DNA of 64,000 bases from Azolla caroliniana (lineage: Eukaryota; Plantae; Polypodiophyta), in contig JBHGNT010000006.1 in assembly GCA_043228905.1 (NCBI GenBank), positions 14,570,001-14,634,000 on the forward strand, given 5' to 3'. A model generated the notes under the pieces. It searched no databases, was not told where the DNA came from, and worked only from the letters and a program-made list of their open reading frames with translations. Positions 25,401 to 64,000 of this stretch are shown piece after piece; within the stretch, counting starts at the first letter, position 1; each line of letters begins with the position of its first letter. The translations under genes and the position numbers were made by a program.

Positions 25401-25484
25401 CTTCTTTACACTCTCATTTAACCCTCACACTTATCCACGTGTATAGAATACTACGGTAAATTCTTACCACGGGATATTATATGG

Positions 25485-28796: not shown

Positions 28797-28930
28797 ATCT
28801 GAACCAAACGATCATTCACAAAATTGTGTGAGCTTCCCGAATCAAATAAAAACTGTACGGGAGATCCATTGATATACCCGTTTGCACGTAGTAAATCATT
28901 GGGACCCAATACATAGTGAGGGAAAGAACA

Positions 28931-31104: not shown

Positions 31105-31352
31105 GAGGTATATACCTCTACGCACATGAAACATCCACAAATAAGAGATCATCGTAATACGCAATGGAGGTATTGACCTCTTACGCATACGAGACCAAAC
31201 GCATATCGTTTACAACAAATCAAGGTATTAAACTCATACGCAAACGTAACATATGTTCGTGAACGTAATACGTAATTGAGGTATTAACCTCGTACGCATA
31301 CGACACTCATCACATATTATCAATATGTCAAACGAGGTATTGACCTCGTGCA
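31105..31352. repeat. Five spaced hairpin-core motifs GAGGTATTRACCTC(N)TACGCA in the element E leader
   Basis: Cores at 31105, 31167, 31222, 31278 and 31334 with dissimilar spacers. Confidence 0.75.
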
Positions 31353-34198: not shown

Positions 34199-37100
34199 TG
34201 TCGAATACATGTGTATAATGGACGTATTCATACTATCCCGTTTTGGACATTTATGTAATTAGCATAAAGGGCAGTTGCCCTAAGTCGGTCACTATATATA
34301 GTGACCTTGTAACCTTTTTGTAAGGTTGGATGTTGTATTATTGCTTTATGGAATAAGTAGTCTTTTGTGTCTCTCTCTCTCTCTCTCTCTCTGTGCAACG
34401 ATCTACAAACTGTCATACGCAGGTACTTAACAGCAGTCGAATGCTTCTTGATCTTCCGCACAGACGACATTGTCTCCAACATCTGGTATCAGAGCCTGCA
34501 CAGTAGTCGGTCCTTCAATCCGCTGTCGGCCGTCGTCTCAGCATTCGGTTTCCTGCGTCACTCGAAGAAGAGAGAAGAAGAAGAAAAACCAGGTTTGCAT
34601 CTCATTGCGTTAGATCATCTTTGCTTGGAGTAAGCCAGCAGGTTGTACTCTGTCCTCCGTGATCGTAACCGCTCGAGGTGAAATCCCCTTGTGCAACATT
34701 GACACGATCGTGCTCCATTCGGTTAAACGGCATCCGAAGAGGTCATCAATCGCCGCTCGTTGTAACCATTCGGTGCAGATCGGTCTCAAGACAACAACCC
34801 CAATTCGTGCTTCATCCGGCTGATCGACATTCGAGAGGATCAGTTGGATCCATCTCTCTCGTCGCTGCAGCCACCCGAAGCAGAATCGGTCCAGATAATC
34901 GGTTTTAATAATCGGTATTCGGCATATATATCCGAAGCGAACCGGACTCACTCCGACTCGGTAACATTCGGGAAGACCAGTCGGTTCTGTCCCTCAAGCT
35001 ACCGAAGTCAATTCGAGCAAGTTCCGAAGCCGAACCTACTCGGGTTCAAATCCGACTAGAACGATATCGGGTGAGCCAACCGGCTGCACTCCAACAAGGT
35101 TCGTAGTCGACTCCGAACCGAGCTTCGTCAACCGAAACCGAATTCGATGGCATCAACATCCGGCTCGTCAGAAATGAGTCTACGAAAGTTCGATGGATCG
35201 AACTTCAACTTCTGGAAGGAGCAAATGCAGGACTATCTCATAGTCAAGGGGCAAATCGATCCCATCGAAAATGAAGAACCTCCAGAAGGATACAAACCAA
35301 TTGAGTGGCAGAAGCTGGACAGAATCGTCCGCGCCACGATTCGGATGCACCTATCGGAATCGGTATACTTTACGGTGCAATCGTGTACGACAGCATTCGA
35401 ACTGTGGAAAACACTGTCGGACACTTACGAAAAGAAGGTCGCCGCAACGAAGATGTTTCTGATCCGGCGCCTCTACAACTTGCGGATGAAAGAATCCGAT
35501 TCGGTTCAAGCACACCTCAATGAGTACGAAAGCATAAGCTCCCAAATCTCGTCACAGGGGACGGCAATCGAGGATGAACTCAGAGCAATGATACTCATGA
35601 GCAGCCTTCCCTCATCATGGGAAACTTTCGTCACAACCGTGTGCAACGCGTCAACCACGGTTGTTAAGTACTCCGAAGTCACGAGCGCAATCCTGACCGA
35701 AGCAGCTCGGAGAAAGTCTTTCGCCAAAGACTCAACAGACGACGCTTATGTAGTACAAGGTTCGACAGACCGATCAAACATACGAGGAAGAGATTCCTCA
35801 CGGCCGCCGAACAATCAGCGAAGACGGAGCCAGTCACGGGATAACCGAATCTGCAACTATTGCAAGAAACCCGGACACATCAAAGCCGACTGCCGCGCAC
35901 TCAAGAACAAGAACAACAAGAAGAGTGGCCGGCATGAGGAGATCAATTACGTCAGCTTCTCAGCTGATGTACTACCGGACGACCCGAATATACTATCAAT
36001 CGAAAATCCAGTCGGATCAGAAGTTCTACTCACGACTGAAGAATCGAGCACATGGCTCTTAGATTCGGGCGCGTCATTTCACGTGACTCCTCATCGATCC
36101 CAATTTCGGCAATATACGATCCGTCACTCCGACTCAGTTCGAGTCGGCAACTCACAACACTGTGACATCATCGGAATCGGCACAGTAGAGCTCAACCTTG
36201 CAGGTGGCTCTACACTTGTACTTCACAATGTCCGACATGTACCCGAGCTCTCAAGGCCATTGATCTCAGTCGGACAACTAGATGAAGACGGCATTCGTGC
36301 CGGCTTTTCTTCGGGAGGGTGGACACTCCACAGGGGGAACCTCCTGCTTGCTAGAGGACCCAAGATACACTCACTGTATCCGTTACATGTTACGCTTAGA
36401 GAGGGTAACCTGTTTTTGGTGGATATTCCTGTGTCATCACTATGGCACAGAAGATTAGGACACCTCAGCAAGGCCGGCATCACGCATCTATCTAGAGCCG
36501 GATACATCCCCAAACTCTCCTTTTCCGACCATCAATTCTGCGAGCATTGCCAGTATGGCAAACAAGCAGCCGCATCACACCCGACATCAGCACCAAGAGA
36601 AACGAGACCTCTCGATTTAGTCCATTCGGACGTCTGTGGCCCAATGCCGCATCAGTCTCTAGGCGGTGCCTCTTACTTCGTCACTTTTATTGACGATTCG
36701 ACTCGAAAGGTGTGGGCTTATCCGATTCGCACCAAAGATCGGGTCTTCTCGATCTTCTCAGATTGGCTCGCTATGGTAGAAAATCAAACCGACCGAAAAC
36801 TGAAATGCTTTCGGACAGACAATGGGGGAGAGTTCAAATCCGAAGAATTCGTCAAATTCTGCCGACAACGCGGCATCCGACGTGAATTTACGGCACCACA
36901 CAGCCCGGAGCAAAACGGGATTGCAGAACGAATGAATCGGACAATCCAAGAAAGGATAGTTTCCATGCTCCAACAGTCCGGACTGTCGGATGGCTTCTGG
37001 GCAGAGGCTCTACTCACGGCAGTACACATAATCAATATGTCGCCAAGTAGACCTCTAGGACTTCAAATTCCTCAGGAACTATGGATCGGCAGTACGCCGA

Positions 37101-39636: not shown

Positions 39637-40178
39637 GCGGACACCGCAGCAGAGGCAAACATCCGGGCCATTTTGGAAGAGGATTAACGGGATGGGTCCG
39701 ACGTGCCATGGCACTATCCCATAAGCGTGCCAGGTGTTGTCCGCCGGAATAGTAACCGGCGGACAAGAGCGTAGGAATAAGAAATAATATAAGATCATAA
39801 TGCATGTAACAGTTCACGTAGGAAGCGTGAACGGCTAAAAAGACCCTGCGTATATAAAGGGTAGAAAACCTGTAATAGAGGGAGCGTGTAATTTTGGGAA
39901 TGTAAGAAACGTCTCATAATAGAATTCTATCTTCTCTGATTCTCTATGTATAGTTACGGTTAATCCACTGTGTGTGTCTTGAGGACCTGAGCGTGTAAGA
40001 ACGGAAGTGTAACCCTTGCTAAGGATTCAGTTGTAGTCGTCCCCCTTATACGCCGATAGGTTACAAGGAACATTCCCCTACGCATTACGCTTAGACGCCT
40101 ATTCGTTGTTCCACACCAACTTGGAGGTCTAGGTCGAAGGACTGACCGCGAACCATGTTCCTAATCGGCAACACTCAG

Positions 40179-42780
40179 TCTGCCCATCTAACTGAGGATG
40201 ATCAAAAGAACTAAGACTCAAGGTTGTTTGTAGTTTCTGCATAACTTCTAACCAAAATGTACTTGTAAACTTGGAGTCTCGATCACTTACAATCTCCATT
40301 GGTAGACCATATAATCTATAAAGATTTCTAATAAACTTAATAGCCAATTGCTTTGCGATAATTGTGGATTTTGTTGGAATGAATCTTGCCATCTTGGTAG
40401 GCCGATCAACAACCACCCAAATGACATTATTTCCCTCAGTGGAACGAGGTAATCCAACTATGAAATCCATGGATATACTTTGCCACTTTTCAGATGGAAT
40501 ATCGAGGGTTGCAATAAGCCAACTTTTTTCTATCACTTGGCCTTAATGACCTGACATTGTGGACAACGTATGGCATAGGACTCTACCTTAGGTTTCATCT
40601 TTGGCTAGAAAAACCCAGCTTTAATCAAAGCTAATGTTCTTTGCACACCTAGATGTCCAGCAAAAGGGGCATCATGACATTCATACAAAATTTTATTGTT
40701 GATGCCCTTTATGTGTGGTATGCAAACCTTACTATTGCGGTACAATAACCCATTCGCAACATAGTAAAGGGTCTTCGGGGTAGATGTGTTTCCATAATCG
40801 ACGTCAATACCTATTTCAGCTCTCTTCCAGAACTTGGGAAATGTTCTGTCATCAAGATTTTTTTTTTACCCCGGATCAAATCAAATAAGTCGTCGTTAAA
40901 TTCTACAAAACTTAGGGCATTAATTTCTGGAATACGACTCAGGGCATCTGCAATGGAATTCAAAGCTCCTTTTCGATATCTAATTTCGAAATCGAAGTCT
41001 TGCATCAACTCCGCCTATCTTGCCTTTCGACCCTCAAAATTCTTTTGAAAGAGGAAGTATCGCAAGGATTTGTGGAACCTATTAAAAACTGTAAATTTAC
41101 TACCATACAAATAATGTCACCATTCTTTTGTTGAACCGAGTAATTTCTTTGGGCCGGATCCAATTTGTTGCTTTCAAAAGCAATTGGTCTCCCAAATTGA
41201 AATAATGCAGTCCCAATAGCATAATCACTTGCATCCGTCTCAACTTCAAATGTTTGATTTGGGTCAGTTATAGCTAAAGTAGGTGCATTCACAATTAATG
41301 AATTCAACTTATTGAAGGTTTCTTCAAGAGAGGCATTCCACTCAATAGGTTTCGTAGACTTTCTTGTAATACCCTTCAATAGGTCTGTAAATGGTGTAGT
41401 GTAGGATGAATAGTTTTGAAGAGATCTTCTTAGGAATCCAACAAATCCTAAGAAAGATCGTAGATCCTTAACATTTGAAGGTCGTGGCTAATTTAATATT
41501 GCTTCTATCTTAGATTTATCGATAGAAACACCCGACCTAGATATATGGCGTCGAACATACGCAATTTCCTTTTGAAAAAAATCACATTTAGATAGTTTGG
41601 CAAATAGCTTGTATTCATGAAGCTTGTCCAAAACTATTCAGCAATGACACGCATGATCCTCAAATGTGTTACTATATACCATAATTTCATCAAGGAATAC
41701 GACCACGAAATCGCCTAGCTGATCTCTGAATATATCATTCATGAATTGCTAGAATGTGGTTGGAGCATCAATCAACCCAAATGGTAGAACCCGAAACTCA
41801 TAATGACCATAATGAGTTCGGAAAGTTGTTTTGGAAACATCTTTATCCGAAAGTTACCCTGATCTGATGATAGCCAAAGCGCAAGTCTATCTTGGTGAAA
41901 TATCGTGCACTTTGGAGTCTATCTATCAAGTCATCAGAACGAGGCAAAGGGTAGGAATTGTGAATGGTGAGTTTATTCAAACCCTAGTAATTTACACACA
42001 TTCGCTAAGTTCCATCCTTCTTCTTGCCCAAGATGACGAGAGCTCCCCATGGCGATTTGTTGTACCAGATGTGTCCCATCCTCAAGTACTCCTTGCTTTG
42101 TTGGGCAATTTCATCATCTTCAGTTCAACTCAACCGATAAGGGGGTATGCTCATAGATTTAGCACCTAGGACCAAGTTTATCTTATGTTCTATAGACCGA
42201 GGAGGTAATCCTTGAGGTAACTTATCTAGGAATAAGTCCTTAAAATGCAACAAGATGTCATGTAGAGCATCTTTCTCAAAATCATCCAATGAACTCTTAT
42301 CTACAAATTGATACAAAGGATCATTGGGCTGTAATATACACGCATAAAATTGTGCATCAACATTTCGATCATAAGTATAAAGATGATTAACAGACATTAA
42401 ATTGTTTATCGCAATCCCATGAATAAAAACTTGTTGGTTGTTATTTCCTTCAAAAGAAATAGTATGATTCGACCAATCGATATCAAGACTATGTCTATTA
42501 TAAAACCATATGTAACCAAGAACTACATCTACCGTTCGTAAACGCCTTACATGAAGTGTAGTTATTTATTACTACGGGTACATCATGTGCAATTAATGAA
42601 TGCCTTTGGACATGGCCTCCTGTAGTAAGGACTTTGTAGTCGTGGTCACTTTTGGTTGTTTTTATTTGTAACATCTGCACCATATTAGAGACAAGAAAAT
42701 TATGAGTGCCACCACAGTCAAATAGTATAGTTACACTTTGATTGTGGATAGTCCCATAAGTTTTTGTAATACATTAGAAC
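40179..42780 (-). pseudogene. Element A pol (protease-RT-RNase H-integrase N-part), degenerate
   Basis: [43 protein letters not shown] motifs in ORF fragments 41005..41379, 40811..41008 and 40129..40536. Confidence 0.9.
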
Positions 42781-46023: not shown

Positions 46024-49000
46024 TGAAAGGAATACCGTTCCCTAAGCTATGCTCAGCCACAATCGAGACGTCGGATCAAGCACAGAAAACAAGGATGTGG
46101 TGAGATGTATTTATGCACGAAACAGTAAAGAAGAGAGTGCACTGGAAAACCCAAATCTGGGAAAAACCATGACAGCCCTCAGACTGCAAAATATCACTAT
46201 ATCAAGATTACAATAATGGGGCACGGAGGCAACGACCTCTTGCTCCCTCGCTTTGCCACTAGGCGGTTACAATAGAGGCAACAACCTCTTCTTCTCTCTC
46301 TCTCTTCTCTGTACACGGTTACGCTCTGAATTATAGCCACAACGATAATAATACAACCAACTCTACATCATACAATTAAGTTTGCCCTAGGTCATATTTA
46401 TACTAATATGACTTTCGGGTTATTTACAAATATAGCCTCAGTGATACCTATGTTGGATGTGCTTCATCCTGGAATGGTACGCTGCGTTCTTAACAGGGTG
46501 GATGGCACTTTGACTGTCGCAATAGAGCCGGTATTCATCTTACCGGATACCGAGCTCACCGATGAAGTCCTTCATCCATAATATTTTCTTGCCGGCTTCC
46601 ACAGCCACCATGTACTCCGCCTCCGTGGTTGACAACGCAACCATCCTCTACAGCCTCGATTGCCACGAAACAGCTCCCCCTGCATATGTCATTACATACC
46701 CGGATGTAGACTGGCTGGTATCCACATTAGCGGACATGTCCGAATCGGTCAAACCGTCAAATTGAGGTTTACCGGAGCCGAATCAGAGACACATATTCGA
46801 AGTGCCCTTCAAGTACCAAAGTATCCATTTGACCGCGTTCCAGTGCTCCTTGCCGGGATTGCTCATAAACCGGCTCACCACTCCGACTGCGTATCCAATA
46901 TCCGGTCGAGTACACACCATTGCGTACATTAAGCTCCCAACGGCAGAAACATATGGAACCTTCATCATATCTGCCTTCTCTGCTTTCGTCTTCGGGCTTT
47001 GCTTACCGGATAGTCTGCAGTTTGTCGGGAGTGTCGATCTGACCGGTTTTGCTTCTAACATATTGGACCGCTGAAGCACCTTTGTCACGTATTTCTCATG
47101 TGACAACCACAATTTCTTCTTTGACCGGTTCCGGATGATGTGCATCCCCAGTATCTGTCTTGCCAGGCCCAAGTCTTTCATTGCGAAGGTTCGATTGAGA
47201 GCCTTCTTCAGCATCTGTATTTTGGCTTGGTCTCGTCCGACGATCAACATGTCGTCCATGTACAAAACGAGTATCAGGAAGTCGTCTCCTTCGAACTTCT
47301 TTACAAACACGTGGTGATCGGTTTGCATTTTGTGATACCCTTGGTCAGTCATGAAGGAGTCAAACTTCCGGTACCATTGTCGGGGAGCCTGCTTCAGTCT
47401 GTATAGGTTCTTCTTCAACCGGCAAACCAGGTGCTCCTTCCCTTTCTCAACAAATCCTTCCGGTTGTTGCATGTAGATCTCCTCTTCGAGGTCACCGTGA
47501 AGGAATATTGTCTTCACGTCCAGCTGCTCTACCTCGAGTTCCATGCTTGCCGCTATACTCAGCACCGTCCGGATGGAAGTCATCTTTACTACTGGGGCAA
47601 ATATCTTGTCGAAGTCCACACCCTTCTTCTGCTGGAACCCCTTCACCACGGTCCTGGCTTTGTATCTCGGGGGTTTGCCGGTGTCTCCCGGTTTCAACTT
47701 GTACACCCACTTATTTCGGAGTGCCCGCTTTTCTTTCGGCAACTCCACCAATTCGTACGTATGGTTCTCATGCAGGGAATCCATTTGCGGTTGTGGGGGT
47801 CATCCTTCGCTTCTTCGAAGCTTTCCGGCTCTCCCTCATCTGTTAGTAGCACATGCTCTGCATCCGGAAATCTCTGGGGGGGCCTTCTCTCTTTGAGAGG
47901 ATATCTCCGTCTTTGGCCTTCGGCAACCGGCTCCACTATTTGTTCTTCATCCAAATCTAATTCAGGGTCTTGGCCGGTTCCGATTTTAGCTTCCTCTACT
48001 TCTTCTTCTGCCGGTTCGGTATCCTCACCGTAACCGGCTGGTTCCTCGAGTGTCAACCAGCTCTTAGCCGGGTGGGTCCGAATCTCATCGGAGTTCATTA
48101 TCTTCTTCTCCGACTCCTAGTCGGCAAGAGTCTTGTCCTCCATGAAGATAATATCTCGGCTCCGGAAAACCTTCTTGTCAACCGGATCCCACACTCGGTA
48201 GCCGAACTCATCATCGTCGTAACCGAGGAATATGCATGGCCAGGTCTTCGGATCTAACTTTCCTCTCCGGTCCTTACCAACATGCATGTACGCGAGACAC
48301 CCGAACACCTTCAGATGCTGGTAGGACCCTTCCTTACCGATCCACACCTTTTGCGGTGTGTCTCCATCCAAGGGCACTGAGGGTGATCTGTTTATCACAT
48401 ACGTCGCTGTCGATAGCGCCTCAGCCCAGAATGTATTGGGTAATTTTCCATGCGCCAGCACTCTCCAGACCCTCTCCATTATGGTTTGGCTCATCCTCTC
48501 GGCCAGCCCGTTTAGTTCCGGCGTCTTCGGCATGGTAAATTCGAGCCGGATTCCCTTCGAGCGATAGTACTCCTCGAACTGCCCCAGGTATTCACCTCCG
48601 TTTCTGCTCGAACCGCCTTCAACTTCCGGCCGGTTTCTCTTTCTACTCTCATGTGGAGCTCTTTGAAGACGGATAGCACCTGATCCTTCGTCTTCCACGG
48701 TGTGGCCCACATCTTCCAGTTGTGGTCATCTATGAATGTCACGAAGTACTGCGATCCGGCATGTGACTTCGTGTCCACTTGACACACATTAGTTTGCACC
48801 AACTCCATTGGTGCATTACTTCTCATCGGTGGCCTTGAGCGGAAAGAGGTTCGGTTTTGCTTACCGGCTAGGCAGTCGGTGCACCTCTCAAGGTGCACGT
48901 TCTTCACTGGAATGAGGTTGTCATCGGCAAGCCTCTTCATCCCCTTGACACTCATGTGACATAGTCTCTTGTGCCACAGCTCACTGGAAATGTCGGAAGC

Positions 49001-50989
49001 CACGTTCACTTCTTCCAGGCATAATCGGGCATTCATTAGGTACAACGTGTTCACCTTCCGGGCCCGAACCACAATCAGGCTCCCTTTGCTGAACTTCATA
49101 ACATCATTCCGGATGCTACTCATGTAGCCTTCATCATCTAGCTGACCGGCTGATATCAGGTTCAGTCGAACCTCCGGAACGTGTCAGACATCCTTCAGCA
49201 GCAGCTTGCATCCGGTTGGTGTTGTCAACCACACGTCTCCTATGCCGAAAATTCGGCATGTACCTTCATTCCCCGTCCGGACACAGCCGTGATCATCGGC
49301 TGAGTAGGATGAGAAGCATTTCCGGTCCGGGGTAAGGTGGAACGACGCTCCGGAATCGACCACCCAGGTCATCTCGTTGCCAACAAGGTTTAGCTCACTC
49401 TCCTCAGTGATGAGCATCAACTCTTCTTCACTTGCCGTGATTGCTGTCATTCCCTTCCGGTCCGGCCCCCTCCGGTCTTTACCGTTTCAGTCCAGTGTCC
49501 GCTTCGAATCGGTACCGTCGGTTTCCTTGTCTTTTCGGAAGTGCCGACAGTTCTTCTGGAAGTGTCCCGGCTTGCCGCAATAGAAGCAGGTAGGCCTCCC
49601 CCTTGACTTTGATCGTGTCCCCGACTTCTCCCAGTTTTGGGGACTACGATTCCTTTGTCTTCCGCGTTCCGATTCGGTAATGAGCGCTTTGGAGTCGGAG
49701 ATCGTATCCTTGTCTTTCCGACACGCCTCCTCATCTAGCAAGCTCAACTTCACTCTTGCTAGGGATAATTGTTTCCCTTCCGGCCCGGCGTTGCCCAAAG
49801 TGACAACCAACGTCTCCCAGCTATCTGGGAGGGAACCGAACAAGAGTAGTGCTAGTACCTCAGCGGCGAGAGGTACTTCTAATGATGTTGCATGGTGTAT
49901 CAGCCCCTAGAAGGCATTCATGTGCTCCATCATGCTAGAGCCATCTTGGTACCGGAGTCTTACTAGCTTCCGAAATACCGAAACCTGATTAACAACATTT
50001 TTGTTCTAAAACATAATGTCGATCTTCTCCCAGAGCTCATGAGCCTTGCTCTCTTCATTGAAGTTGTTGTATAGACTCATGTCGATGAAGCACCGTATGT
50101 ATACCGTTGTCTTCATGTGCATCACCTCCCATATTGTGGCATCGATTTTGTACGGTCTCTTGTCCCCGAACTGAACCGGCAACCAAAGATCTTTAACCAC
50201 GTGCATGTCCCTCATCTTTGACTTCCACACTAAATAGCTGGAGCCGGTGAGATTGAACATGCCTCCCAACGAATCGTCCATTTTTCTATGTCGTTTCGCT
50301 CTGATACCAGTTTGAAAGGAATACCGTTCCTTAAGCTATGCTCGGCTACAACCGAAACGTCGGATCAAGCACAGAAAACAGGGATGTGGTGAGATGTATT
50401 TATGCATGAAACAGTAAAGAAGAGAGTGCACTGGAAAACCCAAATCTGGGAAAAACCATGGCAGCCCTCATACTACAAAATATCACTATATCAAGATTAC
50501 AACAATGGGGCACAGAGGCAATGACCTCTAGCTCCCTCGCTTCGCCATCAGGCGGTTCCAATAGAGGCAACAACCTCTTCTTCTCTCTCTCTCTTCTCTG
50601 TACACGGTTACGCTCTGAATTATCGCCACAACGATAATAACACAACCAACTCTACATCATACAATTAAGTTTTCCGTAGGTCATATTTATACTAATATGA
50701 CTTTCGGGTTATTTACAAATATAGCCCCAGTGGGCTCTCTCTGGAACATATTTACATATATGTCCCTTCATTCGGTGAGACGTTCTCACCGGGTCTTCCG
50801 TTGCCGGGTACTCCACATCCGGTTCTCACCGGGTCTTCCATTGCCGAGTACTCCACATCCGGTTCTCACCGGGTCTTCCGTTGTCGGGTACTCCACATCC
50901 GGTTTCGGCCTTAGCCTATCGGCCTCGGCCGAGTTGCTCATCAACGTTGTTCTTCTCACTTCCCATCCGGAGGGACCTGTTTCCTAACA
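46024..50989 (-). mobile_element. Ty1/Copia element F, degenerate, 3' LTR partly deleted
   Basis: 5' LTR 50313-50989 (with three ~40-bp repeats at ~50782-50905); partial LTR 46024-46443; TSD TAACA; PBS at 50298-50309; CFYCGKPGHFQKNC, WVVDSGASFH, NGLAER, QLDVKT.FLHG, YMDDML. Confidence 0.93.
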
Positions 50990-52056
50990 TAACATTCATT
51001 CATAAAAAGAAATATCATATTTCCTAGTACTATAGCACACAACGCGAATCTAATCAAACATTATTTTTTAGGATTAAAACCGGTTAGATACCATATGTAA
51101 TAACCAAGATCATTAATCCTAAAATAAAGACATAAGGGACACAATCATACTGAAAATACGCGTTACCACCCATCTGACCCCGCGCCAGAGTCGACAGCAC
51201 AAATGAGGAATCCTGATCTGTCCCATACTAGCCAGGATCTCCACGTTAGGACCTTTGTAGATGACTAGTCCACATCAAAGAGAGCTTCGTCGGAACCACT
51301 CATGGGGCTCCCGCCGACTAAGATGAGTATCCCCTATTTATAAGACCTAGGCCATGTAATTACATCTACTTGACCATTAGGTCAGTCCAATAAATCCGAT
51401 AACTCAGATATTACAGTATGATAGCCCCCAAATAAGTGCATCTAAACCAATGAACAATATATGTCCTACCGAACACTATTTATACAAGTCCTTAAAAGGA
51501 TTGACAGAAGTACTTACAAGTACTTCAATGCTCATAGGAGCGACTAATACTAACTCCAAGGAATATGCTTACGTACTAGGCTCAAACCGTAGGCTCCAAC
51601 GGACTACCGGTTCTCACTGTTCCGGAGTATGATCCGGTTCTCCGGTCCGGCTCTAGGTTCTGAGTACCAATCCGGTTCCCCGTTCTAGATAACGATCTGG
51701 CTCCGTCTTATTCAGTCGATCCAGATACGGTTGAGCTTGCCTGGTTAACACTCCCCCTCAAGCTCAACTTGAGGTCGGATCGCTATGTGTGTCCACCAGT
51801 CCTTTCCTCCAGCTCCTCCTGGTGTCTTCCCACCTTGCTCGCGCTCCTTGACTCATCTGGTCCCACGCACCTGGACCTTCTCGGTGGGTTGTTGTCTCAT
51901 AAGGCGCTTCTCAACTCCTTCACTATTGCGACTTAGGCGCTTCTCGACCCGTCGGTCCCTCCATGTCGGTGTCGACTTCCGTTCCCTCCTCGTCCATTTG
52001 GTCTTCTGTTGATTTGGCTCCTCCAAATCAAACTGCTCTTCAGAATGAATTGCCTC

Positions 52057-52790
52057 CTATTCGTTCCAACTCTTGTTCGAATTGGCTGTCTCTAATTCTT
52101 CTTCAACCTTAAGGCCCTTCACCACGTCGACCCACGTCCAGTCAGCTCTGTCATTCATGACTCTGTTGCCATCACCGCTTGTTTCGACTTGTTTGGACAT
52201 GCAGACTTCTTCAGTCGACTCGGCTTCCTTCTTCTTGTTGTCTCCCCCTGCTTCATCTGTTTCCTTCTCTCTGGTTGCTTGTCCAATGCCTTTCCCGGTT
52301 TTCCCAGTTCCCGTTCCACTTTCTTCCTTGCTCCCCCTCAAATGCGGCATGTCGAGATGTTGAAGACCAAGCATCTCCGAAAAGTGTAGCAACTTGTCTA
52401 GGTCGACCGGTTTGGTGAAGATGTCGGGAGTCTGTTGAGCCATCGGAACATACACAATTTCGACTTCACCGAAGAGGACACGCTCACAGAAAAAATGGTA
52501 GTGTACCTCAATGTGCTTGGTCCGGGTGTTGAAAACGGGATTCTTTGCCAGCTGGATGATGTTGAGGTTATCGCAGTAGATCGTTGTCGGATCTGACGCC
52601 TCCACCTATAGATCCTTTAGGAGCCTCTTGAGCCATATGGTTTCGCATGTCGCTCCTCGATACTTGACCTCTGTGTTCAACAGTGCTACCACCGATTGCT
52701 TCTTACTACTCCAAGTGACTGTGGGGCTTCCAAGTGAAAACACATATCCGGATGTAGACCTATGGTCGTCGACGTTTCCAGCCCAATCAG
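52057..52790 (-). pseudogene. Copia RNase H remnant with K/E/T-rich tail
   Basis: IYCDNL..IQLAKNPVFN.RTKHIEVHYHF...PDIFTKP; breaks off abruptly at ~52793. Confidence 0.9.
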
Positions 52791-52841: not shown

Positions 52842-53736
52842 AAAATATCCGCAAATAGAGAAGATGGTTAAGGACTTTGTGGAGCTGACCCTAGCACCAT
52901 TATGACGTATTGTTATATTTGACAGTATGGGTTAGGCATTATTGGTCATGACTGCATTGAAGTCGAGATGCCATGCCACCGAACATATGCATTGGTAAGC
53001 ATTATGTTACTATATATTTAATGTATGGATTCTATGTTGCTTACTACATATTTATTAACTTGTTTTGATTCAATTATAAAATAGGGTTAAAACGAACATA
53101 ACTTGTACCCCAGGTGATCGAATGGTGAGCGTTGTGGAGCACATTTACGTGGGCTACTACGAGGCAATTTCTAAGAAGAAGGCTCCAACACATGTTAATG
53201 AGCGGAATGTTGTCAACTATATCATGTGCCCAGTTGTAATGAAGAAATTGTGCCACGTGTCTAGGGATATGAGTTTAGTAAGCCCTAACAATTGATTAAT
53301 CGATTAGTCAAGTTGTTCTCAAACCCTGATGATTGGGTCCTCGACTTATTTTCTAGAACAGGTAATCTCATAAGTTTCATCAATTTTTTTTAAAATGAAA
53401 TATTATTTCTTGTCTTGTTTTCTTACTTTTGTATGTGTGATTGTTTATTTGGGAACGACAACTGCATGTGCTCTTAAACTGTTCAGGAACTGCGTCACAT
53501 TAGAAAAGGACCCTGACCAAGTCAATTTTATTAAAATGAGGATCCAAGGCATCTGGGATTGTCCCGACCAGAACCAAGAGCCGATGGAACCTATAGACGA
53601 GCAAGGAGGTGACTTGTCGACCTTGAAGATGCATCGGGTTCTTATCATATACAAGATTCAGCTGAGGAGACATAACATGTTGATGCAGCACCATTGTCAG
53701 CTAATCTTGGAGAGCAGCTTGTTCCAGACCTCCTAA
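52842..53736 (+). pseudogene. C-terminal part of a beta-class DNA N6-adenine/N4-cytosine methyltransferase (N6_N4_Mtase-like), 3 exon remnants
   Basis: Spliced reading MHW|VKTN...RMVSVVEHIYVGY...LINRLVKLFSNPDDWVLDLFSRTG|TTTACALKLFRNCVTLEKDPDQVNFIKMRI; introns 52995-53084 and ~53362-53452. Confidence 0.75.
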
Positions 53737-55019
53737 TGGAGTGATTGTATATTAGTTTGTATTTGTAACTATAAAATTGTAACACTAAACTTGTTTTGGA
53801 ATATAAGATTATTTTGTTTGAGTACCATTTCTTTACACTATCTTATTGGTTTGCAAACTTTAAGTGTCTAACATATATTTGTATTGGCTGACTTGCAAAG
53901 TATGTGGTTGTTAAGTATAATTTTTATTGAATAAATGATGATGAACTTATCGATTGTATGACAAATGTTGGTTATAATTGTTTCTTTATTAATATAATTG
54001 AATTTAGCTTTATTCTAGGATTTCTGAGGTCTTTAATCTTGGTTATTTAGTTTCGAGTGTACAGAATAATATTACGTCAACGTTGTTGCTCACTTGATCT
54101 TATATTTAGGTTGTTCATATATGATTGGGATATAATGTTCGTAGAAGTTTTTGGGCATGTGAGGTATATAATATGATATTCACTTGTGAATATGTGTCTA
54201 ATTATACCCAAAAATGCAATTTGCTCATTTAATATAACAAGCTTTATAGGAGTTAGAGAGAAATATAGCATTAAAATTGTGTTTCTAAAATTGTTCAATT
54301 GGATTCAAATTCAACATTATGTAAAATGAAGCATATTACAATGATAGTTGAAAGCATTCTCGTAATCCAAGTGAATGTCTAGCTAAATATGTGTATGAAT
54401 TGAGAAAATATAGGTTAAATTTGAAATCTTGATAATATTAATTGTGTTTTTTATTGATGTCTTTAAAAGTCATGTGTGCATGCATGATACATTCTTGAAG
54501 GTTTGTTAAAAAATTGTAATTCTTGACATCTCATGTATTTATCAATAAATGAATGAGACATATTACATGTTCTAATGACCCGGTGTTTTGTGCATATTTT
54601 AAAAAGCACACCCCACTGAATAAGTGACTTCTTCTAATTATGTGTGTATATTTATATATAATATATCTTAAAGCAAATTGTGAACCTTGCAATTAAGAGA
54701 TACTACTATGTTAAGAGAAAAATTCCATTGACACGTGATACATGACATCGTCAATGTATAAATAAACTAGTCTACAATAACATTCCAATCATACAAGTAA
54801 ATGATAGAGTATAATGTTATCTCCCATATGCCCTAAACGACAGAGGAAACTTTAGGCAACATGTACACATACAAATTATACTTAAGCTCTAAGTTCAATG
54901 AGTGTTACATGAAAATTATAAATAAGCTCAACTTATATATTATGTCAAAATTTAACAATTCATATTGTTCAAATTTCACAATAAGCCATATGCATTCTAT
55001 CCAATAATAAGTCTGGTAA

Positions 55020-57267
55020 AGATGGCTCTTCAATATTAGCTCTTTCATTAGGATTATCCTCAGTCGGTACGCTCAGTTGAATGGTTAGTATGTTCAGACT
55101 CTGTCACATCTTCTAAATCAACAAGGTTCCCTGCTTCTTCATCTATAGGTTCCATAGGTTCTCTAGAAGTCATCTGGAACATCTCAGTTTCATTGATATG
55201 CTTTGCCCCAACTTCTTGGTCTTTGATTAGGACAATCCCAGATATTTTGGATCCTCATTTTGATGAAATTAACCTACTTAGGGTCCTTCTCTAATGCAAC
55301 AGAGTTCCTGAACATCTCTAAAGTGCGTGTTGTAGTAGTACCAAACAGTAGAATGAAAATTGCACATGTAACATCAAACTGAAAAATAGACTATACGTTA
55401 ATCTAAATTGGTGTGATAAGTTTTATATTATATACCCGTGACAGAAAACAAATCTAAACCCCAATCATTAGGGTTTGCAAACAGCTCTATTAGGTGGTTG
55501 ATTAGTCTTTGTGGTTTTTGTTAATGGTTCACCAGGTTCTTATCGCCAGATACATGACATAGCTTCTTTGTTACAACTAGGCACATGATGTAGTTTACAA
55601 CATTTCTTTCTTTGACATGTGTGGGGGGCCTTCTTCTTTGTAATTGCATTGTAGTACCCCACACAAAGATGTTCAACCGTAGCAATAATTCGATCAACCG
55701 GACTATGTGTGATATTAGTTTAATCCTATTAACATCATATGATCGTGTTAAGAATACAGTTTGCAGCATATTAAACAACATTTATAATAGTAAATCAAAT
55801 TAACTTGTATATGTTGATGTCCATGCATGTTCGAGTTCCTCCATGTTAGCAATGACAATTGCTTCATCGTCAGTTCTTGGATCTTCATGTGTACTTTATG
55901 GCTAACAACCAAAGAAATTACGGGTCAATCGCGGTAAGAAAACAAGAAACCAATCAAAGAAGAACCTATGAATAATACTTATTTCTGAAATTAAGTGACC
56001 ATCTCATCCAAGCTAAACTCCTTGGCTACTACTCGTGAAAGTACAGAATTAATAACCTTTCGTCTTTAATGCCTTGTAAAGACCACCAAGGGAGTAGCTT
56101 CATATCTTCGGGGAGTTCCTCAATAATCAAATCACTTTTACATAATTTTGACTTCATTTCCACCTATGGATCGAGTTTGGCCTTCTTTGACCGTTGTCCT
56201 TTCACCTCTTTCTACTCCCACATGCTAAATATTTTGTCTTGCAATTCCCAAACCTCCCCTGTTCTAAAGGCTAATTGAAACCACGAGCCATATTTCCTCA
56301 ATCCTTTCGACCTTGTGCTTTCATCAACCGCTATACCCACCTCCAATAGACATTGTCGATGCAAATTTGGATGTATCCTGGGACCAAATCTTTGCAATAC
56401 ATTGAGGTGCTCGTAGTGAAAAAATCTTATTCGCTTGATCCAAGACATCTTTTGTCTATAATCATTATCATTAATGTGGTCCCAGGCTAATAACTTGGCC
56501 TCTTCATGTGTAAGACCGGCGTAGACTTTGCATTCTGCATATTTGAAGAATGGGGTCAGAGGATATTCTTTCACGAGTTGTCGTCGGGGTTCAGCCGAAT
56601 GTGATCCTCCAATAGCGTAGTAAGTATAGTCATCAATTGAACTATACTTGAAATTAGCAGTGGTGGGGCATTGGTCAGGATCCATCGTTACCCAGAAAGG
56701 TACCACTAGGGCATGCATATTAATCTTCATTTTACTCTTAAGGTTTTTCACGTTCACAACATGTGGCTCTTGAATTTCTAATGGTCATCTCCCTGTCAGA
56801 AGATTTTTTGGCGGCCTTTGAATCGAACTTATAGGCAAATGAAAAAGCTAGCCTTTATGTACCAGTTTTGTCCTTGGAATGTTCTCTCTAATAGCATTTT
56901 GCTCAAACGATAAAATGCATGATGACATTTGGCCTCTTGGAGCAACAACTTCAATTTGTTGCTCCTCCGCGTCTTCCTCCTTTACGAACTCTAGCATCTC
57001 TTGTTTATCTTCATCAGGTTTTGGTCGTTTTTTATACCTTTTATGTTCGAGATTTCACTTATGAGACTTCTTCGGAGGCGTCTCTGCCTCTCTAACCATT
57101 AGCTCCCCAGTAACATAAGGACAAAGAGCAACAATTAGGTTGATGTTCGTTTGTATGTCCTTTTGGAAAATTTTGGGGCTACAACCCTCAGCCACCATGT
57201 TTCCTTCATCAACGAGTACCCGCCTAGTCCCATTCGAGATTATTACATCAAGGACGAGATTAGGCAT
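55020..57267 (-). pseudogene. ParB/Srx-like N-terminal domain followed by a beta-class N6/N4 methyltransferase C-terminus
   Basis: FHLPISSIQRP...VKNLKSKM...YYAIGGSHSAE.RRQL...CKVYAGLTHEEAKLLA (56212-56880); QKPQRLINHLIELFANPNDWGLDLFSVTG|TTTTRTLEMFRNSVALEKDP (55520-55280); stops, frameshifts and a missing middle. Confidence 0.7.
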
Positions 57268-58240
57268 GTTACCGTACGGGATGCATGGGAGATGTAGAGT
57301 GTGATGAGGGAGGGTCGAATGTTATAATGTTGTTCATGTGTATGTGTAAATGTAATTGTGAGTGTGACTTGATGTGTATGTGTACACATGTGTGCATGTG
57401 GACGGATATGAAGAGGTGTGATTGAGTGATTAGTATGAATGGACAAGGGGGCTTGCACCCCTGTGTATCTACCCTTTTGTAACTATTTAACCCCTTATGG
57501 GAATGAAGGAATAGTTCTCTCTCAATCTCTTTCTCTTGTCATCTCTCCCTCTCTCTGTCCCTTACGTCCACCCCACAATGCTTCTCAACATCTTCCACAT
57601 CCCCATCCCTATCACTACCTTATTATCATCATAATCATCATCCCTAACCCTAAAACCTATAAGAAGGCAAGTCACTATCTTCGTACTCAACATTCCGAAG
57701 TCTACCATATGTGAAGCTCTTGCCTAAATCCATTTTCCCCTTTCCTTTCGACTTTGCAAATATTAGGAGTAACACTCCTTCCTCAACGTAAACCAAACTC
57801 CTAGAATGGCTCCACCCCCCTCCCAAGGGGGTTCAACATAAGGGAGAGAGAGAGAGAGAGAGATGACAAGAGAAAGAGATTGAGTGAGAACTATTCATTC
57901 ATTCCTTATTCATTCCCCATAAGGGGTTAAATAGTTACAAAAGGGTAGATACACAGGGGTGCAAGCCCCCTTGTCCATTCATACTAATCACTCACTCACA
58001 CCTCCTCGTATCTATCCACATGCACACATGTGTGCATGTGTACACATACACATCGAGTCACACTCACAATTACACTTATACATTTACACATACATATTAA
58101 CAACATTATAGCATTCGGCCCTCCCTCATCACACTCTACATCTCCCGTACATCCCATATGGTAACACACCTAATCTCGTCCTTGATGTAGTAATCTTGAA
58201 TGGAACTAAATAGATACTCATTGATGAAGGAAACCTGGTG
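57193..58240. repeat. Long imperfect inverted repeat: arms 57193-57564 and 57839-58240, 274-bp spacer
   Basis: For example GAATGGACAAGGGGGCTTGCACCCCTGTGTATCTACCCTTTTGTAACTATTTAACCCCTTATGGG is matched by its reverse complement at ~57916-57980. Confidence 0.92.
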
Positions 58241-59100
58241 TCTAATGCAGACCAAACATTGACAGCCAGAGACAACGCTGGAAAGACACGACTGGATGCA
58301 CCAAGCATGGACAACCGCAAAGGCACTACTGAAACGGACCGTAAGGACATGGTTGAACCAGAAAAATAAAAGACACAACCAAACCGGAGAAGCTGGGCCG
58401 CACAGGCACAGACAGAGATGAACGACACGGATGAAAAGCAACCGAAATGGCTAATGAATGATGACAAACAATGTCGGATAATAGAAACGACGAAGTAGCA
58501 GAAGGAAAGGAGCAACAAAGATGATTCATAAGAAACATCAAAAAATGAAAGGAAGAAGAAGAAGTAGAAGATGTGAAAGAAGAAATAGAGCAAGAAGAGA
58601 AGAAGAAGTAGAAACAGAGAGAATGAAGAAGAAGAGAAGAAAGAGAAGCAGCAACGGCAACAGAAGAAGAAGAAGAAAACACATAAGGAGATAGAAAGGC
58701 GGGAGACAAAAAAAGAGATAGAATCAAAGAAGAAGAAAACAATAACACAAAAAGAGGGGGAAAAAGAAAAAACCCTAAGGGCATTGTTGGAATTTTAAAA
58801 AATATATAAAAAATCATGAAGGTAAATATTGTGGTATTACCATGAACATTTAACCAAGGTCCCATGTAACTAGGGTCACATTGACCGTACCTAAATCAGG
58901 GGTCAATCAACTCCCCGTAATTAGGGAAACTCCCCATAACTGATGAGAGCGGGAAAACACCCGCCAGGCTACATGCCTATAAGATGTAACTCCAACTTAA
59001 TGGAATATGGGGTGGATAAATCGATTATTCAGAGCACTTCACATCCTGGTGGAGAAGATGGGCATAGTAGCCCCAACTCCCGACCCCCACAACACACACC

Positions 59101-59622: not shown

Positions 59623-62600
59623 CGTTGAGCGGCAAGCTCAACTAGAGCTGGATCGGCTGAATAAGCCTGAGCCGGCAAGCGAGACGGATCGGTAAGCTGT
59701 GAGCAACCGAGCCAGCAAGCAACAGAGCCGGTGAGCTGGGGAGCCGGTTAGCCAGATCCAATCAGTAACCGGAAGCCTAGTATTAGCGTAGACTACTAGG
59801 CAATTATAATCTCGTAGTAAGTGTCAGATGCTCGTGTGAGCATTGAAGTACGCGGGACTTCTATCAGTCCCACGAGGACTTGTATAAATAATGATACTGA
59901 GCATAGTTGTTTGTATAGAGTGTTTTTATTGTTTTTGAATATAGCCTTGAGGTTTTGCTCTCTCTATCTCTCCCATGTACTCTGTGTATTCCCTACCTTC
60001 TCTGTTTTCTAACGCTTCCGCAAGTAATCCTTTACATGGTATCAGAGCGCGAGGGTTGAGAACCTCTGCAACCGACAAACTCTTGAAAGCAAACCCTAAC
60101 AGGTCGTAAAACAACAGATAGAGAAGTGATGGATAGAGGGATGGCTAGCTCGCTCCCTGTGGAGAAACTCGAAAGATCCAACTATGCATCTTGGTCGTAT
60201 AAGATGCACAAGTACCTGCTTGGGCATGGCTACTGGAGTTTCGTCGAAGGAGCCAACGAAACAGCACTTAATGCGACACATAAGGACTTCCTAGTGTGGG
60301 AACAATTGAAAGCAGAGTGATGTACTGCTTCACGTCCAGTGTCGGAGACCAGCTGCTGAGCCACATTCGAGACACCAAGATGCCGAAGGAGGCTTGGGGG
60401 AACCTGAAGAAGGGTTTCGCCGTGAGCACTACAGCACGGAAGCTGCAACTCCGACAGGAGTTGAGCAATGTCCGACAGAAGGACATGTCGGTGGCGGATT
60501 ACACGGCCCGGATCAAAGAGATATGTTACTCACTTGCCTCTATCAACGTTATCGTAGAGGAAGACGAGATGGTACAGGTCTGTCTTGGGGGCCTGGCATC
60601 TAAGTTCAGAGCGTTCCGAACGGCGGTGTGTACAAGGGAGAATACGCCGTCATTTTTCGACTTACAGTTGATGCTCCTTGTAGAGGAGAACCACGACGGT
60701 GCGTCACCTAGCGCACCCACTGACAGCCGGATGTTGTACACGAAGGCGGATCGGTCTCGTGGGCGTGGTGGACGAGGTGGGTCAGCATGCAATGGAGGTG
60801 GCTGGCAAGAGCAAGAACGAAGGCATAGAGAACGTGCCGACAACGGTTCCGGGATTCCCACAGGCAGGGGGAGTCATGGCGACACCGGAAGACGCCAAGA
60901 GAAGTCAGCAATGGAATGCTGGTACTGTGGCAAAAAGGGCCACAGAGAAAGCGAGTGCTGGAGAAAACGAGCCGATTCGGACAAATCCGGATCCGGCAAG
61001 GCCGGAAAGGATGGACGGCAAAGCTCGCACTACGGGAAGGGATCGGGAGGATCCAAGAACGGCAACGAGCCTGCCTTGGTGATGAAGCACGAGGCGAACT
61101 CGATGAAGACCACTTCCAAATCGGAGGAAGTGTGGTATGTTGATTCCGGTGCATCGAACCACATGGCGAGCCACAAAGAGTGGTTCTCCTTTTTGGAGAA
61201 ACCGGATCAACCATGAGTAGTCGAAACCGGATCAACCAGGAGTAGTCGAAACCGGAGACGACACTCCTCACCCAATTGTGCACATCGGAGAAGTCCATTT
61301 GAGCCATGTCGGGCAGAAGGGGAAGCTGATGAACGTATTACACGTTCCGATAATAACGAAGAACCTGGTGTCGGTCGGACAGATCGTCGACCAAGGGATG
61401 TAGGTGCGGTTTACGCACCTAAGGTGCTTCATCGAGGAAGAGGGCCATATTATTGCGCAAGGGCGCAGAGACGGGAGGATGTTTATCCTCGACACCAATG
61501 ACGTCGGCACCGCTCTGTTTGCAAAAGGATAGAAGGTCGAATCGGACATCGACCTGTGGCACAAGCGGATAGGCCACGTCAATTACCGGAGGCTTCAAGA
61601 CCTGCAAACGAAACAAGTTGTTTTCGGTTTGTCGAAGTTTAGCGGCCAGAAGGCCCAAGTATGTGAAGCCTGCCAACTCGGGAAGCAACACCGGCTTCCA
61701 TTCCCACCGAATGTAACCAGAGCCATAACAAGCTCGACCTTATCCATTCGGATGTGTGGGGACCGGCACAGAATGTTAGTCTTGGCAGGAGTCGATATTT
61801 CGTCTCCTTCATCGACGACTATATGCGACAGACATGGATCTACCTCATTGAATGGAAGAGTGAAGTCTTCGAGTGTTTCCGGAGTCTCCAAATAATGGTG
61901 GAATGGGAATCGGAGAGGAGGATCAAATGCCTGTGGTCGGATGGTGGAAAAGAGTACTTTCCCGGCCAATTCAACAGTTATCTGCAGCAAAAGGGAATTC
62001 GGCGAGAGTTCTGTTGCAGATACACACCGCAACAGAACGGTGTTGCCGAAAGAAAGAACCGATCGCTTATTGATGCGGCAAGGGCAATGCTAGAGGAGAA
62101 GAGCATGCCCAAATTCTACTGGGTGTAGGAAGTCCGAACAACTGTCTACATCCAAAACCGGATCGGTGACAAGGTGTCAGCCCACAAGCTGTATTTCGGG
62201 CGCAAGCTGAATTTGAGACACCTTAAGATCTTCGGTAGCATTGCATATGTGCATGTACCAGAAGAGAAGCGGATGAAGCTGGATGAAAAATTGGAAAAAT
62301 GCATCCTAATCGGCTATGCTCAAGAGGAGAAGGGTTATAAGTGTTATAACCCCCGAACAAAGTAGGTCTGAGTTAGTCGAGATGTCGAGTTCGATGAATC
62401 GGCATCATGGTACTCCTTACCGGCTCCGACTTCCGAATCCGACCCAATGCCGATGGATGAGGCTAGTGAGCCTGAACCGGCCCAGGTAGAGGATGATGAA
62501 GCGTGGACTCAGGATGAGAGTCCGGAATCGTTCCGGTTGAGCTGGCCAAACGAGAGACTGAGTCAATTTGACTAGTCCGATGAGGAATCGACGAGTAGTA

Positions 62601-64000
62601 GAGAGACTCTGTCGTGCACTCCCTGTGCAAGGAACCGAGGCGACAGTTCATGCGCAAAGAGAAGGGGAAGAAGAAAATGCCGGAATTCAAAACCGGCAAC
62701 GATGAGTCAGATCAGTGTGCATCCGACTCTGGCAAGGAGAAAGGCAAATCTTCGGCAACGAAGACCGAACCGGCAAAGAAGGGCCTCAAACCGGGTAAGA
62801 GTGAGTTACGTCGGTCCACCCGCCAGAAGGATCCCGTCAAGCGGTACGGGTACAATGAGTACATGGCGCATCACTATGCGTACATGACTAAGGTGGCGGA
62901 AGTGGGTGAGCCGGAGAGCTACGCAGAAGCGACCAAGGACACCAATTGGCATGCCTCTATGGAGGAAGAAATGCGGGCACTTGATGTCAACAAGACATGG
63001 GACCTGGTTGACCCTCCTTCTCACTGTAAACCGATCGGATGCAAGTGGATATACAAGGTAAAGTACAATGCCGACGGTTTTGTTAACCGGTATAAAGCCT
63101 GGTTAGTGGCGAAGGGATACGCGCAGACCCACGGAATCGACTACGACGAGACCTTCGCTCCAGTAGCGAAGATGACGACGGTTCGTGTGGTGCTGTTGGT
63201 TGCTGTAGCAAGGGGGTGGCATATTCACCAGATGGATGTGAAGAATGCGTTTCTTCAGGGTGATCTTGAAGAAGAAGTTTTTATGACTCAGCCCCCCAGC
63301 TTTCAATCGGAGATGAACAAGTCAGCAGTATGCCGGCTGAAGAAGTCATTGTACGGCCTGAAGCAAGCCCCTCGACCTTGGAATGTGAAGATCACGCACC
63401 GGTTGCGTAAGATGGGGTTTGTGGCCTCCAAATCCGACTCTTCTTTGTTCATCCGGCAAGGCTTAGCCGGCCCGGTATGTATACTGTTGTATGTTGATGA
63501 TCTAGTCATCACCGGACCGGGTGTTCCAGAAATCAACCGCGTCAAGTCCCTGTTGTCGGACGCATTTGAGATGAAGGACTTGGGGGACCTTCATTATTTT
63601 CTTAGGATCGAGGTGATCCGAACCCCTGACTTCATATTACTCTCACAACAACATTACGTCTTGAATATGTTGTACAAGTTCGGCATGACAGAATGCCGAC
63701 CTGTCTCCACACCCTTGGACCGGAACCAGAAGCTCCGTCCCAACTCCGGTATGGCCTGCAACGAGAAATGGTTCCGACAACTTGTCAGAAGCCTTATTTA
63801 CCTTACTATCACACGCCCTGACATAAGCTATCCGGTCGGGATGATAAGTCAGTTCATGCAGAAGCCGACCGTGGAGCACCTTCAGTGCGCACAACGGATA
63901 TTGCGATATGTAAGCGGCACGAAGGACCGGGTATTGTTATACCAGCGAGGTATAATCGAAGAGCTCGTCGGTTGCACGGATGTTGACTAGGCCGGCGATG
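59623..64000 (+). mobile_element. Ty1/Copia element G (same family as C), degenerate, runs off the window
   Basis: LTR 59623-60036; PBS TGGTATCAGAGC at 60037; gag CWYCGKKGHRESEC, WYVDSGASNHM, integrase and RT (62614..63990) with several stops. Confidence 0.95.

Follow-up and report, generated by a model that had tools for sequence, protein, structure and literature searches.

In the brown alga Ectocarpus, the transposon Sola1-1_Ec32 carries, on the strand opposite to its transposase gene, an accessory gene for a protein of 1104 aa with a ParB-like part and an N4/N6 methyltransferase (MTase) part, for which self-modification has been proposed. The report (PMC12477816) gives the element as 21.5 kb long, with a 282-bp imperfect terminal inverted repeat (TIR), a 4-bp target site duplication (TSD), termini that start with AACCG, and two intact copies. 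MTase and ParB accessory genes with adjacent inverted-repeat arrays are described for the Plavaka (EnSpm) elements of Bostrychia (PAG2 and PAG3), with self-binding proposed (bioRxiv 10.1101/2025.02.11.637652). Prokaryotic-type β-class amino-MTases also occur in eukaryotes as host genes. MpDN4MT1 of Marchantia and N4CMT of bdelloid rotifers have TSPPY or SPPY at motif IV, write N4-methylcytosine (4mC) and are without a ParB part (bioRxiv 2021.02.12.428880, PMC8885841), and N4CMT has a chromodomain and silences transposons (PMC8885841). ParB-MTase loci are known from phages as well, and the clades listed in section 8 of PMC4738411 hold no family of the Azolla type.

The DNA analysed here, a 64,000-nucleotide stretch of contig JBHGNT010000006.1 of the fern Azolla caroliniana (the window), contains a defective copy of an accessory gene, the second gene that a Sola-like cut-and-paste transposon carries. 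Its intact relatives are the second gene of a DNA transposon that has many intact copies and at least three subfamilies. Like Sola1-1_Ec32, to which it is likened by description, the Azolla family is of Sola type with a 4-bp TSD, has termini starting with AAC (AACAC here), and bears an accessory gene (about 969 aa) opposite to the transposase strand; unlike it, the family resides in a land plant, is 7.6–9.5 kb long with TIRs of 36–37 bp, and has measured selection and a defined palindrome. Plavaka shares with it a transposon-borne PF01555 domain and a ParB-like domain with 7BNR as the best match in both, but has a transposase of another superfamily and, in separate genes, an MTase fused to SET and a ParB fused to a 2OG-oxygenase. 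In contrast to MpDN4MT1 and N4CMT, the Azolla gene is transposon cargo and reads DIPY at motif IV, and in contrast to phage and bacterial MTases it has introns, a long N-terminal region and a ParB part without a phage sequence match. The self-marking design has already been proposed for algal transposons, and the Azolla family would be a further, land-plant case. We found no land-plant description of the family in the openly accessible papers and preprint main texts that were searched.

The broken copy in the window

An earlier note, made from the letters of this stretch, had placed a minus-strand gene at 55020..57267 that joins a ParB-like part to an amino-MTase of bacterial type, with an intron inside the FxGxG motif. 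All of the motifs that it quoted are present in the six-frame translation of the minus strand: YAIGGSHSAEP at 56596-56619 with CKVYAGLTHEEAKLLAW directly downstream, (W)IKTNITHSPVDRIIATVEH at the opening of exon 5 (55725), QKPQRLINHLIELFANPNDWGLDLFSVTG at 55520-55436, and GTTTTRTLEMFRNSVALEKD from 55341 onward. The intron at 55435-55342 is borne out by its occurrence at the same place in subfamilies A, B, and D. The gene extends beyond the limits given, with a piece at 57801-57672 and an end near 54999. The features of the locus are as follows.

58169-58260: duplicated gene piece
About 57800-58161: inverted second copy of the repeat at 57265..57671
57672..57801, minus: separated fragment of exon 2 that covers residues 84-127 in the 969-aa model (tblastn, 73% identity; blastn to subfamily-C copies)
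57265..57671, no strand: unrelated repeat inserted in exon 2 (inverted repeats I1, I2, I4, and I5; blastn to the L083 flank and to L081/L082)
55983..57264, minus: remainder of exon 2, residues ~129-554, with the ParB/Srx-like and helical domains (72% identical to the intact model by tblastn)
56596..56619, minus: ParB/Srx-type G-G-S-H motif, YAIGGSHS (translation and family alignment)
55810..55901, minus: 5' part of exon 3, truncated by a deletion
55809..55810, no strand: junction of the ~577-bp deletion (576 bp against L071, 580 bp against L076; relatives split at query base 1431/1432)
55436..55725, minus: exon 5, with the target-recognition region, the QKP motif and the first half of the SAM motif
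55342..55435, minus: intron 5, phase 1, within the FxGxG motif, acceptor AG lost (common to subfamilies A, B, and D; spliced join in run X2)
54999..55341, minus: exon 6, with GTTT, RNxVALEKD and an acidic tail, one stop and frameshifts (tblastn)
54588..54998, minus: 3' non-coding part of the element (82% to L086:8707-9218)
54551..54587, plus: right TIR of a second copy (86-89% to the family TIR)
52843..54587, plus: 3' fragment of this second, more diverged family copy, residues 706-969, without DIPY

The window copy falls in the older, decayed subfamily C, where its nearest kin are 81–87% alike to it and none of ten regions examined holds an intact copy. Overall it has at least eight stops and several frameshifts, and it has lost the donor of intron 2 and the acceptor of intron 5. 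Exon 2 at 55983..57264 contains six stops, a frameshift near 56047 and a donor changed from GT to AT; exon 5 contains one stop, a frameshift near 55630 and DLFSVTG where intact copies read DLFSGTG; and the 94-nt intron behind it retains the donor GT with TG as the acceptor. The inserted repeat, its inverted copy and the duplicated piece replace the 5' part of the gene, and exon 1, the palindrome array, the transposase and the left TIR were absent from the window in a transposase search and a scan for the array motif. The ~577-bp deletion, which is private to the window copy when compared with two aligned relatives, took the last part of exon 3 along with intron 3, the whole of exon 4 with the catalytic DIPY, and the start of intron 4. 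Motif IV, rightly reported as not visible in the window, is therefore missing because its exon was lost by a deletion of 576–580 bp and not because it diverged; intact copies read DIPY. At the other end, the 3' non-coding part stops about 260 bp before its own right TIR (that of L086 ends near 9480), and the second copy, which lies tail-to-tail with the first, was likely inserted into it. What remains at this locus is no more than a fossil. The repeat at 57265-58260 is about 400 bp long and rich in CA/GA runs, is present there in two inverted copies and occurs again in the L083 flank; it is probably a small mobile element that set off the rearrangement.

The intact transposon and its fused accessory gene

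With the longest stop-free piece of the window copy (56215-56784) as the query, 1234 candidates were found in the fern's own genome (523 Mb), and the 150 that were scored are all matches, with 73–83% identity apart from the query itself. An exon-4 query returned 1265 candidates; both figures are lower bounds rather than copy numbers. These matches, together with the stops and frameshifts, support the proposal that the locus is a decayed member of a multi-copy family. The 30-kb regions around six matches have a block of ~9 kb in common, and two insertions on different chromosomes are 99.93% identical over 8980 bp. The family has transposed recently. Both ends were located in 17 of 20 subfamily A/B regions, which were picked from the best matches and include one insertion twice (L060/L061), and an exact 4-bp TSD flanks 16 of the 17, the other being off by one base. 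Subfamily D, uncovered via a distant-relative query, shows both ends in 15 of 20 regions with an exact TSD in every one of the 15, bringing the overall count to 31 of 32 elements with both ends. The TIRs are 37 bp long in A/B, starting with AACACCGGG, and 36 bp long in D, starting with AACACGTTCG. Elements measure 7.6–9.5 kb, except for one deleted copy of 6.5 kb; those of subfamily A (8.6–9.0 kb) are 94–99.9% alike, those of subfamily B (7.6–8.1 kb) 97–98%, and the two subfamilies are ~77% alike.

Each element has a single-exon transposase of 890–926 aa that is arranged head-to-head with the ParB-MTase gene. The transposase matches Pfam DUF7869 (E 1e-49), had no match among PDB sequences, and in A, B, and D retains the Asp contexts DGMDQ, LDN, and GHTHDHID, whose sequence conservation suggests the catalytic role expected of a DDD transposase. 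Both genes are open in 12 of 40 A/B/D regions, a sample biased toward good copies. What had been put forward as a possibly mobile gene is thus demonstrated to be one through the TIRs, the 4-bp TSDs and the transposase of its intact relatives, and the search proposed at the time, for intact copies with such flanks, recovered them with DIPY as motif IV. A 4-bp TSD is given for the Sola superfamily in PMC10741241. The Azolla family has this TSD and TIRs, at 7.6–9.5 kb against a typical 2–9 kb, and by analogy appears to be a Sola-like DNA transposon; a "Sola1-like" label would follow from the Ectocarpus precedent.

The gene model was built in region L049, where six exons separated by five GT-AG introns give a 969-aa open frame; introns 2-5 occupy identical positions in A, B, and D. 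In run X2, which is probably RNA by automatic classification and is labelled as another organism, reads join across intron 2 (7100 to 7182, with GT..AG ends) and lead from the exon 3 end straight into exon 4 in each of the two subfamilies compared; within the SAM motif they also span intron 5, where two letters differ. The gene was absent from all runs on record as RNA, and no joins of introns 1 and 4 were seen in the RNA-like runs, of which X3 and X4 covered the gene barely or not at all. In the model, exon 1 and intron 1 are predicted. An annotated Ginkgo protein shares the N-HKVYMKIQE junction. Exon 4 carries LLIADIPYG, and exons 5-6 carry QKP and DLFSGTGTTT; with DIPY at residues ~689-692 and DLFSGTG at ~847-853, motif IV precedes SAM motif I. 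The earlier proposal of one gene with a ParB-like part and a β-class amino-MTase is upheld by the open frame and by single annotated relatives that bear both domains. A reading as two separate genes was rejected on the grounds of the same frame, the spliced joins and the fused relatives.

The N-terminal part is predicted to have a ParB/Srx fold. This region had no match in Pfam or PHROGs, so the ParBc hit that was expected of it did not appear; the predicted structure of the intact domain instead resembles ParB, Noc, and Srx. The AlphaFold model has a pLDDT of 77.5, its top ten Foldseek matches are all ParB/Noc (E 3e-5 to 7e-4), and the top nine chains in a wide VIA search are all ParB/Srx (PadC: Z 10.0, rmsd 2.8, 99 aligned). 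Bacterial ParB proteins have an Arg-rich CTP box, G-x-H/E-R-R (GERRxRA). The family reads GGSHSAEAR or GGGHSREAR at this place, and the Arg of the bacterial box is not kept. Against phage proteins the ParB part gave a best tblastn match of only E 0.6. As a side observation, the ESM Atlas features of the ParB domain (L049:6100-7098) lie near fungal DUF3723 clusters (0.96, 184 of 256 in common); DUF3723 is found as Starship cargo, and it may therefore be a related ParB-like transposon accessory domain.

Sequence and model both indicate that the C-terminal part is probably a β-class amino-methyltransferase. The Pfam N6_N4_Mtase profile (PF01555) matches a 29-aa piece of the window copy below the curated cut-off (E 6e-4) and the intact exon 5 above it (E 2.2e-8), an outcome in line with the class first suggested; the value for the Ginkgo protein P0066 is E 8e-18. 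The fold was read from the model of a full-length relative, P0084, whereas the family's own ParB domain was modelled separately. P0084 is closest to CcrM (Z 23.1, rmsd 3.5, 228 aligned; Foldseek E 2e-11), followed in the VIA ranking by M.BceJIV (22), MboIIA (21.1), HpyAVI (20.9), rotifer N4CMT (19.8), and PvuII (19.4), so that 6mA enzymes (23.1-20.9) are split only modestly from 4mC enzymes (19.8-19.4). The fold and the motif order IV-TRD-X-I are common to CcrM, M.BceJIV, MboIIA, and M.RsrI, at 16–20% structural identity. Phage MTases show 24–28% sequence identity, and the ESM Atlas neighbours of the domain are mostly phage PF01555 clusters. Motif IV is a D-x-P-Y variant throughout, versus the canonical (D/N/S)PP(Y/F/W).

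A profile search returned 774 representatives at E<=0.001. Among the best 150, the 20 that were looked up comprise eight from Chara braunii, four from Riccia sorocarpa, three from Adiantum nelumboides, two from Ginkgo, two Logan contigs, and one JGI/IMG record, and none of these named relatives is from a flowering plant; a third Ginkgo protein came from a separate search. PF01555 scores above the cut-off in 7 of 23 relatives scanned. Both domains occur in one annotated protein in Ginkgo, Chara, and Riccia and also in one JGI/IMG ORF, and word-index searches found no longer fused forms. The relatives read DIPH, DAPY, DVPY, DFPY, or DLPY at motif IV, with DFPC in two. Several paralogues per species suggest that the relatives may be mobile elements in those plants too. 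In 80 metagenome loci, the divergently oriented transposase gene is present wherever at least 4.5 kb lies upstream (9/9), a strict test finds the DIPY exon in 34 of the 43 with sufficient downstream DNA, and the motif IV matches read DIPY in all but one case (48/49). In one Logan record (P0134), the family's helical domain follows a sterile alpha motif (SAM) domain, with neither the ParB motif nor the MTase present, possibly by domestication or as a gene-model chimera.

The palindrome array, selection and decay

Predicted intron 1 holds an array of palindromes, CGATGCA-N-TGCATCG in subfamilies A, B, and C and CGATACG-N-CGTATCG in D; the metagenome loci add further variants, and the consensus is CGATRC-N3-GYATCG. 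Exact consensus sites number 4352 in the genome, compared with 17 for the reversed control. Of ten array clusters, taken from the start of the site list, nine lie no more than 5 kb from family genes, and two of the nine had been among the known matches before. The tenth, L201 (C1:5334300-5344299), has five CGATACA-N-TGTATCG sites at ~100-150-bp spacing and neither family gene within 5 kb, and may be a non-autonomous derivative or another family with the same address. The inner bases differ between subfamilies, and the variable inner positions stay complementary in 377/390 and 341/390 sites. The commonest spacings, 31-32, 40-42, 50-52, 62-63, and 71-73, correspond to about 3, 4, 5, 6, and 7 helical turns, although a formal test backs the phasing only weakly (R 0.35, p ~0.004, with non-independent spacings and nine periods tried). 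The palindrome holds two invariant CpGs, is absent from the TIRs of A, B, and D, and occurs 1–20 times per copy, with the abundant subfamily B having only 1–5 sites. In bacteria, parS is a palindromic site present in several copies. As modelled, the family resembles ParB-parS in a ParB/Srx fold followed by a helical domain and in a multi-copy palindrome of similar length; it differs in having no ParA and an altered CTP-binding Arg box (GGSHS), and the binding here is predicted.

Strong purifying selection acts on the ParB-MTase gene. When the subfamily consensuses are compared, pS is 0.61-1.0, at or close to saturation, whereas pN in the ParB, helical, and MTase parts is 0.04-0.08 for A-B and 0.17-0.25 against D; for the ParB domain of A versus B, pN is 0.041 and pS 0.86. 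The A-B dN/dS is 0.045 for the MTase and 0.058 for the transposase core, and the ParB and MTase domains are each 92% identical versus 86% for the transposase core. Within subfamilies, copies drift, with a dN/dS of 0.1-0.4 against the consensus. The gene also co-diverges with the transposase: trees of both proteins from 10 elements show the same three clades, and their identities are correlated (Spearman 0.86, Mantel p 2e-4, with kin not independent).

The copies are host-methylated most of the time. Relative to the consensus, C-to-T changes at CG and CHG are ~10 times those at CHH in A and B and 2.6–4.4 times in D. No sparing of palindrome CpGs was found in A (0.043 vs 0.024 at other CpGs) or B (0.077 vs 0.037), and the values in D are 0.016 vs 0.019. 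This decay, of the kind seen in 5mC-methylated DNA, does not support a lasting shielding of copies or palindromes from 5mC, and whatever the cargo does would be transient or unrelated to 5mC. CHG-type decay and the flanking genes suit a land-plant host.

Possible roles of the accessory protein, and other elements in the window

Our preferred reading, to which we give roughly even odds (about 0.5), is that the accessory protein binds its own array, writes 6mA there, and aids the expression or movement of the element. The ParB and helical part would recognise CGATRC-N3-GYATCG as a dimer in a parS-like manner, with the sites on one face of the helix, and an active MTase would make 6mA, perhaps on the palindrome's ApT, a short way downstream of the gene's own start site. 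The mark would act transiently, in one cell type or right after insertion, and not as a lasting 5mC shield. Judged by sequence, DIPY favours 6mA over 4mC of the Marchantia and rotifer type: PMC8885841 gives SPPY for most N4C enzymes and DPPY for N6A ones. As 6mA at ApT downstream of start sites goes with active transcription in other eukaryotes (PMC12695648), an activating role for the element's 6mA is plausible by analogy. With D-I-P-Y in place of D-P-P-Y, the enzyme may have reduced activity or none.

The same self-targeting could yield 4mC instead, for example at the palindrome CpG in competition with host 5mC. The β-class fold common to N4CMT and PvuII (Z 19.8 and 19.4), the two invariant CpGs, and the ability of plants to use 4mC, as stated in the Marchantia preprint (bioRxiv 2021.02.12.428880), would suit this outcome, but it is quite unlikely given Asp in place of Ser at motif IV in all relatives read (SPPY being typical of N4C and DPPY of N6A enzymes, PMC8885841) and palindrome CpGs that are not spared from C-to-T. 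Likewise, the link to Marchantia and rotifer 4mC writers that the earlier note had raised is weakened, since intact copies read DIPY and not TSPPY or SPPY. A somewhat more serious competitor, though still improbable, is a structural or regulatory cofactor on the array, whose MTase either binds DNA or SAM without catalysis or has the element's RNA as its substrate; binding would then serve autoregulation of the common head-to-head promoter or the pairing of ends for the transposase. The non-canonical DIPY, a ParB motif without the usual Arg, the position of the array directly behind the predicted first exon and between both genes, and the lack of any sign of durable 5mC protection are all compatible with such a cofactor. 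DIRS elements are known to carry amino-MTases that are inactive (PMC4738411). However, relatives from Chara to Ginkgo keep the catalytic D, the P-Y and a complete DLFSGxG SAM motif, and selection constrains the MTase and ParB domains to the same degree.

It is highly unlikely that the MTase marks DNA broadly (the host genome, target sites or sperm chromatin), with an array that is bound by the transposase or arises from repeat turnover independently of the accessory protein. Chara, Riccia, Adiantum, and Ginkgo, from which the named relatives come, have swimming sperm, the number of array sites turns over fast (1–20), and CACTA-type accessory proteins bind internal repeats, all of which would fit this reading. 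Against it, the TIRs of A, B, and D, where a transposase normally binds, do not contain the palindrome, the array consensus is kept across subfamilies with saturated synonymous sites, and a second ParB-bearing algal family also has adjacent inverted-repeat arrays (bioRxiv 10.1101/2025.02.11.637652). A neutral passenger, that is, a Pack-type capture of a host or bacterial fragment, or bacterial contamination has a negligible probability: the window copy is dead and copies drift within subfamilies (dN/dS 0.1-0.4 vs consensus), but spliceosomal introns at matching positions in three subfamilies, chromosome-scale contigs, TSDs, a between-subfamily dN/dS of 0.045 or lower, and the co-divergence with the transposase speak otherwise, and for the family as a whole it is ruled out by the introns, selection and co-divergence.

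To our knowledge, 6mA in plants is disputed and has no clear dedicated writer. For the preferred reading of self-marking with 6mA, the family supplies young, intact, high-copy elements along with a candidate enzyme and its putative 15-bp target, which makes an idea that has so far been an algal proposal directly testable. If this reading holds, transposon anti-silencing proteins would gain a counterpart that writes methylation, and the gene might serve as a programmable DNA-marking module. A tentative extension, which we consider doubtful, is a streptophyte-wide Sola-like lineage, in Chara, liverworts, ferns including Azolla, and Ginkgo, that has kept a parS-like address and a ParB-guided adenine MTase for hundreds of Myr as an element-switching source of 6mA; in land plants such 6mA would be genuine, enzyme-made and locus-specific and would turn elements on, for example in the male germ line.

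The window also contains a second, unrelated TIR element of 10.6 kb (12030-22652) with the 4-bp TSD CTCA on both sides. Its broken transposase (13361-16662) has an HTH match (E 5e-5) and the motifs DFAENY and GHGKGEHDG, and is presumably Sola2-like. This element has two arrays of TAGCTAATTAGCTA palindromes (14150-14850 and 19030-20050), and its minus-strand cargo consists of ORFs at 20104-20484 and 20706-21458, which gave no clear match, and a NIF/FCP1-like phosphatase at 17012-17896 (Pfam E 4e-8). Nested Ty3/gypsy and Ty1/copia retrotransposons occupy 2900-11200, 23200-40500, 46800-52600, and 60300-64000, with long open frames at 25485-28811 on the minus strand and 35075-39160 on the plus strand.
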